A stretch of 64,000 nt of DNA, taken from Escherichia coli. Its GTDB lineage: Bacteria > Pseudomonadota > Gammaproteobacteria > Enterobacterales > Enterobacteriaceae. A program made the position numbers. Every line of letters begins with the position of its first letter. The first letter of the stretch is position 1. Below are positions 9,001 through 12,000 of this stretch, in pieces. Location: assembly GCF_045037415.1 (NCBI RefSeq), contig NZ_CP173438.1. One strand, 5' to 3'.

Positions 9001-12000
9001 CGCGCCGTTTGGCGATATGACGGTGAAATGCCATCAGCATTATTACATCACCACATTACCGGGCAGGCAGTGGCCAAAAATTGAGGCATTTATTACCTGG
9101 CTAAGAGAGCAGGTATGTCAGTCTTGTCAGTATCAGTGATACCGGGGATACCGGGGATACCGACAATATGGAAGGGCTCATTGCCCTGAAAACAACATTG
9201 GTGTCGGATGTACCGGGCCGCAGACATTGCGCTCCGTCATTTGTGCGGCACAGCCCATCACAGTGATAAAGTTTCTCAGTATGTATCAGGGATCTACACG
9301 CAGCAGCTTAAGGAGGCCGGATTGCAAGCATCAACAGGGCGTACAGGCGACTCGTATGGCAGCGCGATGGCGGAGAGCATCAATGATCTTTACAAAGCGG
9401 AATACACCATAAGAGCTGGAAAAATCGTGCAGAAGTGGAACTGGCCACACTTACGTGGATGGACTGGTATAACAATCGACGTTTACTGGAAAGGCTGTGG
9501 CACATCCCTCCGGCTGAAGCAGAAAAAGCGTATTATGCTTCTATCGGAAATGATGAGCTGGCAGCCTGAGTTCACAGATAAAACACTCTCCAGGAAACAC
9601 GGGGCGGTTCAACTGACAGACATCACAAATCCCCGGGTGGGGATTTGTGTATAAGAGACAGAGCCTAGCTGGGGGCTGTGCACAAGAAAACGGCTCCCTG
9701 TTGTGGAAGCCGCTATAGTGCCGCAGTTTAAGGACCGGTCAACTGCTCCTTAACTGATCCGCATTGTGCGTGAAAGCAGACTTTTGGGGTCATTACATGT
9801 TTGAAAATACATTCATAATAATGCCGCCACTAATAATCAGCAACATGGAGAATATGGCAGGTAAATCGGGCTTTTGTTTATAAAGAATCATCGAGAAAAT
9901 TGTCACGCCAACAATCCCAAAGCCGCACCAGAGTGAATAGGCAACACCAACCGGAATAGTACTCATTGCTCTGGTCAGAGCGAAATAACACGTTGAATAA
10001 GCACATACCACCAGAACAGAAGGCCACAGTCGCCTAAAACCATTGGTTTTTTTGATCATTGACGTACCGGTTATTTCAGAACCGATGGAAAGTGCCAGCC
10101 ATAAAAATCCAATATTAAACATGAGCAATTCCTTTTGTCAGTTAGCGATTTTTTTATCGAGGTTGGTAACTGGAGTTTCTTCCGCCTCTTCACTGCCCAT
10201 TTTTGAGAACAGATTCATAATGATAATACCGCTGGCTATGATGACCATACCAATAATGGCGGCGGTATCCGGGTGTTGACCGTAAAATAAAATCCCAAGG
10301 GTTGAAACCATCAAAATGCCAGTACCGGACCATGTGGCGTAAGCCAGACCAACGGGGATATCTTTTACTGCCCGTGAAAGCGAGTAGTAACAAATGCAAT
10401 ACAGTACGACGATTAGGGCCAGCAGCAGCGTTTTTGTCATCCCCTCACTGTTATCGAACATTTTAAGTGTGGATGTTGCAGAGGTTTCAGAAAGGATGAC
10501 CAGTAACATCCATAGCCAGCATTTTGTTTTCGAAGACATATCTAAACTCCAGGTTTGTTATCGAGGTAAGGTTATTTTTTCTGTGCTTTCAAAAAATCGA
10601 CCGCAGCATCGGTCAGTACGGCGTCGGGTGATTTTGCCAGTGCCGGATTATTGACGATATCGGTGACAGTCAGATAACGCCGATGATGACTTACAGGCGA
10701 TTGACTGCTGACGTCTGTTGCCAGTTTTTCCAGCATTTCATTCATGGAACATAACGTAATGCCACACTCGCTAAGGCCGGTAAGCGTGGCGGAAAGATGC
10801 GCCGCGTAGTCGCTGTGAACAGTACCGCGAAGCGCGTTTAATTCGCTGTGCGGATCGCAGTAATAACGCAGTGCCAGTACCGGAATACCCGCCAGTAGCG
10901 CATCGTGAACCCTTTGCGCTACCGGGCTTTGCAGCGTACCGTTGACAATATCTACAGCCAGCGGGTAACTCAAAAACGGCAGCAATAACGCTTTATAGGG
11001 CGTTGAAGGCAATTTGTGTTGCCATGTTTTAGCGGGTATCACGTCACCAATTTGCTGCCACCGTTCGCTATCACTGATTGTTTCATCCAGCGCCAGATGC
11101 AACCGTTCGCCACAACGAGCCAACCGCTGATGAATCAGATCCCGATAGCCATCCGCAGATGTCACCATGACCAGTACCGCAGGTTGCAGCCGCTGGAGGA
11201 TCAGGTTGACGATGGTGTCGATCTGTTGTTCGGTCATGATGGCCTCCCTTAGCGAATCAGTGTTACCTGCGCCCCGTTTTTCAGTCCGGCAGCATTGGCT
11301 TCTTCCGTATCGATATGCAGTTCAAGGGCAAAATCATTGCGCACCCGTACCACCACTTCATCGAACGTTAACTGGCGTTCACCATGACTGCGAACACTCA
11401 CCTTCTGCCCATTGCTGACATTCAACAGACGAGCATCCTGGGGAGACATATGAATATGCCGCCAGGCGCAAATGACTTGTGAATGCAACTCAACATGACC
11501 TTTCGGCCCCACCAACAGTGCGTCACCGGCATTTTCCAGTTGCCCGGATTCACGCACTGGCGCTTTAATGCCGAGAGTAAAACAATCGGCACGTGAGATT
11601 TCCAGCTGGCTTGTCGGGCGAACCGGTCCAAGTACGCGGACGTGAGTCAGAGAACCTTTCGGGCCGACAACCGTTACACACTCTTCAGCGGCGAATTGCC
11701 CAGGCTGGCGCAACGGCTTAAAGGGCGTAAGTTGGTAGCCAACACCAAAAAGTGCTTCAACATCCTGTTGCGACAGATGCACATGACGATTAGAAACACC
11801 GACCGGAATAGTGGGAGCAGTATCGATCAGTCGCGTGGTGATTTTTTCCTGTAGCAGTGCGTCAATCATGCTTTCTTCCCTTTCTTATGCCCGTGGCTTT
11901 TCACTTCCACGATGGGGGCTTGCACTTCTTTCTCAGGTACAGGCATTGCAGTTTCAGTATCTGTAGAAACTTCAGCGGTTTCCTCGCAGACAGCCATTTC

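Follow-up and report, generated by a model that had tools for sequence, protein, structure and literature searches.

A hairpin-bearing 50-bp sequence between the dsd and cut modules of Escherichia coli as a very probable left-end relic of ISEc13

Introduction

The transposase of the insertion sequence (IS) IS50 is reportedly protected from read-in by the structure of the read-through transcript, as Krebs & Reznikoff are said to have found in 1986 and Schulz & Reznikoff in 1991, and IS10 is protected from outside transcription by what is called 'fold-back inhibition'. In both elements the protection works within the read-through RNA, where the ribosome-binding site is occluded. IS50 also has a transposase promoter with Dam sites. 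Here we analyse a 50-bp sequence with a perfect hairpin that is almost certainly an end relic of ISEc13, an element of the IS50 group. The sequence lies at positions 9612-9661 of a window of 64,000 nucleotides (the whole stretch of DNA analysed) from Escherichia coli contig NZ_CP173438.1, assembly GCF_045037415.1, and this window comes from a B2-type island. The stump is already known in kind, as it is a fragment of a catalogued element, and in the searchable literature ISEc13 is named only in element lists.

An original prediction, made from the DNA alone, had pointed to an end relic of an IS4-family element of the IS50/Tn5 type, abutting an IS3-family remnant. The best explanation of the observations is an inert ISEc13 stump, with the history of the locus and the origin of the hairpin proposed below, and taken as a whole we consider it very likely.

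Identification of the element

In a blastn comparison of the pMAR2 copy of ISEc13 with the window, positions 9612-9661 were identical to bases 1-50 of the element (50/50), with the interior of the element facing left. The features of this stretch are as follows:

9612..9661, minus strand: ISEc13 relic, 100% identical to bases 1-50 of the element and truncated at 9611/9612
9643..9661, minus strand: 19-bp terminal inverted repeat of ISEc13 (left inverted repeat, IRL, of the outside-end type), CTGTCTCTTATACACAAAT, with its tip at 9661, identical to the IRL of pMAR2 (L005:301-319)
9624..9649, no strand assigned: perfect 11-bp inverted repeat with a loop of 4 nt, corresponding to ISEc13 positions 13-38; IRL positions 13-19 are overlapped by the arm 9639-9649

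The reference copy of ISEc13 is located on a plasmid of enteropathogenic E. coli (EPEC), pMAR2 (NC_011603.1 32984-34533; L005:301-1850), and intact copies of 1550 bp occur on this and many other plasmids under the PGAP name 'IS4-like element ISEc13 family transposase'. The ISEc13 transposase, of 457 aa, matches the structures of Tn5 transposase (1MUH and others) with E=7e-84, and the right end of the element is the Tn5 inside end (19/19). The sequence of 9612-9661 was also found at 100% identity in the O157:H7 strain EC4115, as the tip of a degenerate element of 1445 bp, whose genes are annotated as 'IS4/Tn5 family transposase DNA-binding protein' and 'IS4 family transposase' and whose opposite end, AGATCTGATCAAGAGACAG, is a Tn5 inside end. 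A sensitive BLAST search with 9571-9792 assigned 9571-9611 to the ends of IS3-family elements, 9612-9661 to O157:H7 (100%) and 9680-9766 to IS4 (92%). In all the contexts that were read, an ISEc13 copy or remnant ends with the 50-bp sequence.

Elements of the IS50 subgroup of the IS4 family make target-site duplications of 8-9 bp (PMC2266710). Of the two flanks of the present locus, the window retains just the right one, AGCCTAGCT..., and lacks the left copy. When the full 1550-bp element was compared with the 64 kb by blastn, no other piece of ISEc13, including the transposase gene, was detected. In addition, the partner right end in inverted orientation, CTGTCTCTTGATCAGATCT, had no match in the 64 kb at <=3 mismatches. 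Because partner end and transposase are both lacking there, the stump is immobile.

The 19-mer CTGTCTCTTATACACAAAT, obtained as the reverse complement of 9643-9661, has a single occurrence in the window, where 0.01 would be expected. It matches the Tn5 outside end (OE), CTGACTCTTATACACAAGT, at 17/19 positions, and it matches the synthetic mosaic end (ME), CTGTCTCTTATACACATCT, also at 17/19, the initial 16 nt being identical to the latter. The OE and ME references were taken from PMC3347997, and genuine ends of IS50 (IS50R) from plasmid pMAK2 (locus L011). The 19-mer keeps the TTATACACA DnaA-box positions. By homology with the Tn5 outside end, it would be the site of transposase binding and cleavage in a live ISEc13.

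These results bear out the idea of an IS4-family end relic beside an IS3-family remnant, since 9612-9661 correspond to ISEc13 1-50 and start directly after the IS3-type repeat. The affinity with Tn5/IS50 was correctly seen as far as the group is concerned, and the element is ISEc13 rather than IS50 itself. The coordinates first given were off by 2-5 bases: the hairpin had been placed at 9629-9659, a range that cuts into the true arms, and the 19-mer, whose 17/19 match to the Tn5 outside end was right, had been placed at 9641-9659. The hairpin itself is real; it had been described as "embedding" the OE-like 19-mer, and it is better described as an intrinsic part of the ISEc13 left end.

Sequence and stability of the hairpin

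The 50 bp at 9612-9661 read ACTGACAGACAT-CACAAATCCCC-GGGT-GGGGATTTGTG-TATAAGAGACAG. The inverted repeat of CACAAATCCCC and GGGGATTTGTG is perfect over 11 bp, with its arms at 9624-9634 and 9639-9649 and the loop GGGT at 9635-9638. Folded as minus-strand RNA, it has a free energy of -22.1 kcal/mol (z = -5.5), and 0/200 shuffled sequences were equally stable; its stability is thus more than chance would give.

Perfect hairpins of at least 11 bp are found six times in the window, while 0.1 would be expected per 64 kb of first-order Markov sequence; since there are six of them, a lone perfect hairpin is not unusual for real DNA. The five others (37432-37461, 42582-42610, 52484-52509, 55756-55785 and 63836-63864) are probably terminators or operators.

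The hairpin in ISEc13 copies and related elements

The hairpin is present in every ISEc13 copy read, with small variations: in the variant of Salmonella and E. fergusonii there is a G.T wobble and the outermost pair is lost, and in that of IHE3034 the loop is shorter. Relatives sharing the tip were collected among the matches listed in a scan of 100,044 species genomes with CTGTCTCTTATNCACAAAT and by tblastn on plasmids. Together these searches gave at least 20 distinct relatives with a stem and T-run, in Vibrio, Photobacterium, Alteromonas, Neiella, Aliagarivorans, Alishewanella, Psychrosphaera, Aeromonas and other hosts. Their transposases have 51-52% amino acid identity to that of ISEc13 in the two relatives measured.

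In these relatives the first 22-23 nt are nearly unchanged, and a fold begins at position 16 (AAAUCCC...), with an 11-13-bp stem of -9.6 to -20.7 kcal/mol, followed by T6-9 and then by a conserved GAAC. The outer pairs of the stems are invariant, and positions 23-27 are occupied by 3-6 different types of Watson-Crick or wobble pairs each. RNAalifold found compensatory changes in 5/7 pairs; the MAFFT alignment of the left ends mis-registers some of the 3' arms, and these counts therefore understate the pairing. For this reason the pairing was judged on folds of the single sequences, anchored at the invariant left arm. The copy of V. parahaemolyticus is terminator-like by consensus scan.

An alignment of the left 120-195 bp showed that, from GGGGATTT to the conserved TTTTTTGAAC...GTTGATC block, the ISEc13 lineage is longer by 60-75 bp, and therefore its stem is separated from its T-run. 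The block after the hairpin, TTTTTTGAAC...GTTGATC(T), contains GATC sites and is common to all the relatives compared (L005:301-480 with L009, L010 and L015). By analogy with IS50, it may be a transposase promoter with Dam sites; a promoter consensus scan of intact ISEc13 gave no call. Bases 1-200 of ISEc13 have no significant global structure (z -1.0), and so an occlusion of the start codon in the manner of IS50 finds no support.

In the relatives, the stem and T-run face inward and would stop RNA polymerase entering from outside. Such a terminator would halt transcripts coming from flanking host genes, and in this way it would insulate the expression of the transposase. The hairpin of ISEc13 would then descend from an inward-facing Rho-independent terminator located at the same position in its relatives. 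On the strength of these sequence comparisons we lean towards regarding it as a vestige of a family-wide read-in terminator, an opinion held with distinctly less assurance than the identity of the relic. In ISEc13 it would be, at best, a weak or vestigial terminator or a barrier of RNA structure. As for the stump, the most that it could do today would be to form an RNA hairpin when the minus strand is read out from the DMT/cut genes, and an exaptation as a weak terminator of that read-out is conceivable.

Some observations weigh against the explanation given here. The terminator scan made no call on the hairpin, either in the window or in intact ISEc13, and the stem of ISEc13 is followed by only 4 T in the next 9 nt. 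In Shewanella (L035), Colwellia (L057) and Pluralibacter (L024/25) there are elements that share the tip and, according to their folds, have no hairpin, which indicates that the hairpin is dispensable. Concerning the identification, three ISEc13 copies (O157, pMAR2 and IHE3034) are without target duplication, and the name ISEc13 comes from NCBI annotation only. Finally, the order of events proposed below (ISEc13, then the IS3 element, then the deletion) is the simplest history and is read from the nesting only.

Alternative explanations

The palindrome could act at the level of DNA, as a regulatory site of the IS, for example as a second, inverted binding site for transposase or a host factor that modulates the use of the end. 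One hairpin arm overlaps positions 13-19 of the transposase-binding repeat, and at the right end of ISEc13 the terminal 13 bp likewise recur in inverted form, which suggests a family habit of making palindromes out of end sequence. However, in the relatives the sequence of the inner stem is free to vary while the pairing is kept, a pattern that fits selection on structure and not recognition by a protein, and the stem is followed by T6-9, as is typical for intrinsic terminators. We consider a regulatory site of this kind unlikely, although it is the least improbable of the alternatives to a terminator origin. An ordinary intergenic terminator of the host, belonging to dsdC or to the DMT/cut operon and resembling a Tn5 end by coincidence, would agree with the position of the hairpin between convergent genes and with the several more perfect hairpins of at least 11 bp in the window. 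Rfam has no family for the hairpin at 9624-9649. The 50/50 identity to an IS terminus makes such a terminator very improbable, as do the lack of a T-run on either strand and the negative terminator scan. A common intergenic hairpin unrelated to ISs, which the original prediction had kept in view, is likewise contradicted by the genomic contexts: all those read are the tip of an ISEc13 copy or remnant, and six sampled matches limited to bases 1-50 gave no sign of another known locus. Scarcely credible, in turn, is a self-contained palindromic element of 49 bp, similar to a MITE (miniature inverted-repeat transposable element), which would be mobilisable and not a product of truncation. Bases 1-23 and 28-49 of ISEc13 do form an extended imperfect inverted repeat, of which the window keeps the unit plus one base; the fold extends past the 11-bp stem, with CUG...CAG pairing at the outer ends; and a solo copy of the opposite (right) end, a palindrome of 35 bp, exists in E. 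coli B. Outside the 11-bp core, however, the arms agree at only about 5/11 positions, and the left boundary is accounted for by an IS1203-like inverted repeat. All six matches to bases 1-50 only that a listing from 5426 E. coli genomes gave lie on chromosomes, and the single one open to a cross-check (WP5-S18-ESBL-09) is the same locus; other apparent 50-bp matches, including H320, are tips of full-length copies. The miniature palindrome was rejected, as the sampled 1-50-only matches included no second locus.

The remaining alternative is technical, namely a chimera with the Nextera/Tn5 mosaic-end adapter (CTGTCTCTTATACACATCT) built into the assembly. The 16 nt shared with the mosaic end would favour it, and true adapter-derived sequences that match the same 19-mer pattern exist in public contigs of metagenome-assembled genomes (MAGs). 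Nevertheless, the bases past the 19-mer are those of ISEc13 (CCCCACCCGGGGATTTGTG...) and not those of the adapter (CCGAGCCCACGAGAC or GACGCTGCCGACGA), and the locus is internal to the contig, not terminal. It is also identical in 308 complete genomes from many laboratories, including UTI89, whose genome was presumably Sanger-sequenced in 2006, before Nextera. Given the ISEc13 continuation and some 309 independent complete genomes, the adapter chimera that the original prediction had foreseen has practically no chance of being correct, and the 50 bp are best taken as a genuine ISEc13 end.

The CTGTCTCTTATNCACAAAT scan also recovered adapter contaminants, in which CTGTCTCTTATACACAAAT is followed by CCGAGCCCACGAGAC or GACGCTGCCGACGA, with sequencing errors and mostly at or near contig ends. 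They were seen in public MAG contigs L021, L022, L026, L029, L030, L034, L038, L042, L049, L058, L059, L061, L085, L118 and others. These sequences are read-through of the Nextera adapter, a contamination in deposited assemblies. Conversely, genuine reads could be clipped at ISEc13 ends if adapters are trimmed aggressively, as we infer from the 16 nt in common with the adapter, and the motif should not be taken for contamination.

Neighbouring remnants and genomic organization

In the RefSeq annotation, this part of the window contains dsdA and dsdX on the minus strand, dsdC on the plus strand and a frameshifted 'integrase core domain' pseudogene on the plus strand, followed by two DMT-family transporter genes and by microcompartment, cutD and cutC genes, all on the minus strand. 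The features around the ISEc13 relic are the following:

8189..9139, plus strand: dsdC, the gene with which the dsdCXA module ends, on the left of the IS debris
9150..9611, plus strand: remnant (3' part) of an element of the IS3 family, IS1203/IS629 type, with the frameshifted C-terminal integrase-core part of orfB and an intact right inverted repeat
9662..9675, no strand assigned: AGCCTAGCTGGGGG, right half of a GC hairpin (inferred ISEc13 target), intact in p1222
9678..9766, minus strand: left-end remnant of an IS4-like element, with the terminal repeat and the 5' untranslated region (UTR) up to the transposase start position, 92% identical to IS4 copies annotated 'IS4 family transposase'
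9793..10128, minus strand: DMT/SMR-family transporter gene, first of the DMT-cutCD module, right neighbour

The left boundary of the IS3-family remnant is approximate (9150-9170). RefSeq describes it as 'integrase core domain-containing protein, frameshifted, incomplete'. Its identity to the IS3-family copy of pO103 is about 86%, and the homology stops exactly at ...GGCGGTTCA, at 9611, which is the end of the right inverted repeat of the pO103-type IS3 element. Its matches in O157 are annotated 'IS3-like element IS1203 family transposase'; because the identity is only about 86%, the remnant is a relative of IS1203 and not IS1203 itself. While other copies of ISEc13 continue with ...GTCAGTCTGCTTTAGG, the window has ...GTCAGTTGAACCGCC, with the switch to the IS3 repeat, and therefore an element of the IS3 type interrupts ISEc13 50 bp from its tip.

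On the other side of the relic, an intact hairpin, CCCCCAGCctaGCTGGGGGTTTT (-20.4 kcal/mol), is found at the homologous place in plasmid p1222; the left half of this target hairpin was not found in the window. The junction of the ISEc13 tip with the flank also exists on plasmid p12690-1 (L003:2900-3079), where an IS2-family element cuts ISEc13 about 150 bp from the tip and the flank holds for about 28 bp before it diverges. This shared junction suggests an old shared insertion or a hot spot.

The original prediction had suggested that an IS4-family end abuts the IS3-family remnant and marks an old junction of the cut segment. The contact between an IS3-family remnant and an IS4-family end is supported, and a third remnant, the IS4-like left end at 9678-9766, is now added to it. 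Just inside this IS4 end there is a terminator-like hairpin at 9714-9689 (minus strand), AGCGGCTTCC...GGGAGCCGTT followed by TTCTT, which is possibly a further barrier to read-in. The only Rfam hit of the IS4 5'-UTR hairpin was ctRNA_p42d, below the threshold (30.8 bits against a gathering score of 50), and we take it for a generic resemblance between hairpins.

Two details concern the end of dsdC. Three tandem copies of a 9-bp unit similar to GATACCGGG extend over 9131-9162, across the dsdC stop codon and the start of the IS3 remnant. In addition, the dsdC frame is 8189-9139 in the window, and the annotation of UTI89 projected on the window gives 8177-9121, these differences at both ends hinting at small indels.

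Distribution and history of the locus

UTI89, NU14, UM146 and many other strains share the 661 bp around the hairpin at 100% identity, with 308 complete genomes carrying the locus. The full mosaic of three ISs occurs in about 309 of the approximately 321 complete genomes that have the DMT pair, and it is therefore a fixed part of the island. The intergenic region between dsdC and the DMT/cut genes is thus a nest of three dead insertion sequences.

We propose that ISEc13 would have inserted into the loop of a GC-rich hairpin beside an IS4-like end, and that an IS3-family element similar to IS1203/IS629 would then have landed 50 bp inside ISEc13. A later deletion, starting from the side of the IS3 element, would have taken away the front of that element together with what was left of ISEc13, and so brought the debris up against dsdC. 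In this manner the dsdCXA module and the DMT/cutCD module, the latter for choline utilisation, are joined via an IS scar of three layers. The unannotated ISEc13 stump of 50 bp and the IS4-like stump are added here to the IS3 pseudogene, which was already annotated. For the window itself the meaning is small, as this is ordinary debris of mobile elements at the junction of an island.

Target sites and terminal palindromes

Seven members of the family had duplications of 8-10 bp, and in this small sample 6/7 were inserted into the loop of a strong hairpin (flanks of L006, L009, L010, L027, L031, L032 and L057). Most of these target hairpins consist of an A-run, a GC stem and a T-run, that is, they are host terminators. 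For five of them only 0-1/200 shuffled sequences folded as well; the sixth, in L031, was weak, with 2/200. The inferred target of the ISEc13 of the window, represented by the right half of the GC hairpin (compare L004:2996-3018), fits this hairpin-loop pattern.

At the other end of the element, the terminal repeat of ISEc13 is doubled into a palindrome that takes up the last 35 bp (L005:1816-1850). A perfect palindrome of 35 bp that stands alone, CTGTCTCTTGATCAGgagatCTGATCAAGAGACAG, made of two repeats of the Tn5 inside-end type, was found between trmL and lldD in E. coli B (L133:1499-1533), where the intergenic region is GC-rich and has a hairpin. Only in its first two bases does this solo copy differ from the 35-bp palindrome that closes ISEc13, and 33-bp matches to it at 100% occurred in at least nine further BLAST matches listed (H97-H105), from other E. 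coli. This solo palindrome could be a scar of nearly precise excision.

Only tentatively do we raise the idea that the ISEc13 clade exchanges a terminator for a terminator: its members would insert preferentially into the loops of host terminators or GC hairpins and would carry their own inward terminator, fused to position 16 of the left end, and the hairpin of the window would be a decayed remnant of it. We regard this as rather doubtful at present. If it were true, the built-in terminator would both keep read-in away from the transposase and stand in for the termination signal destroyed by the insertion. The right-end palindrome and the 35-bp scar between trmL and lldD are related oddities that fit the same picture. 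The searchable literature gave no description of hairpin-loop targeting, or of a right-end or solo palindrome, in the ISEc13 clade; a review of the IS4 family treats the features of its subgroups and says nothing on terminators (PMC2266710), and a search for terminator-targeting ISs returned nothing pertinent. Built-in terminators together with hairpin targeting could be of interest to transposon specialists, if they are upheld in a proper survey.

Comparison with known elements

The closest described sequence is the pMAR2 copy of ISEc13, whose bases 1-50 are identical to those of the window, including the 19-bp IRL and the 11-bp hairpin; unlike that copy, the window has neither the transposase gene nor the right end. 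With IS50/Tn5, ISEc13 shares the CTG tip and the TTATACACA block of the 19-mer, and the transposases are homologous. The ISEc13 19-mer differs from OE at positions 4 and 18 and from ME at positions 17 and 18, and the transposase of IS50R has only 39% identity to that of ISEc13 by tblastn. IS50 also presents a subterminal hairpin, at 19-58, but this is imperfect and not significant (z -1.25), whereas that of ISEc13 starts at position 13.

Closer in this respect are the Tn5-like ISs of marine gammaproteobacteria, such as those of V. parahaemolyticus pVP128-1 (L009:295-1799) and Photobacterium sp. DA100 (L010:272-1776). Their first 22-23 bp are the same as in ISEc13 or nearly so, they also have a hairpin from position 16 (AAATCCC...GGGATTT), and their right ends are similar (CTGTCTCTTGATCAC...). 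On the other hand, their stems, of 11-13 bp and with inner pairs that vary, are longer and run directly into T6-9, in the form of a canonical intrinsic terminator, while in ISEc13 a 4-nt loop follows CCCC and the T-run is displaced 60-75 bp downstream. The logic proposed for these elements is the same as in IS50 and IS10, where outside transcripts are kept from expressing the transposase by a structure near the outside end; the difference is that the relatives of ISEc13 carry a plain predicted terminator for it.

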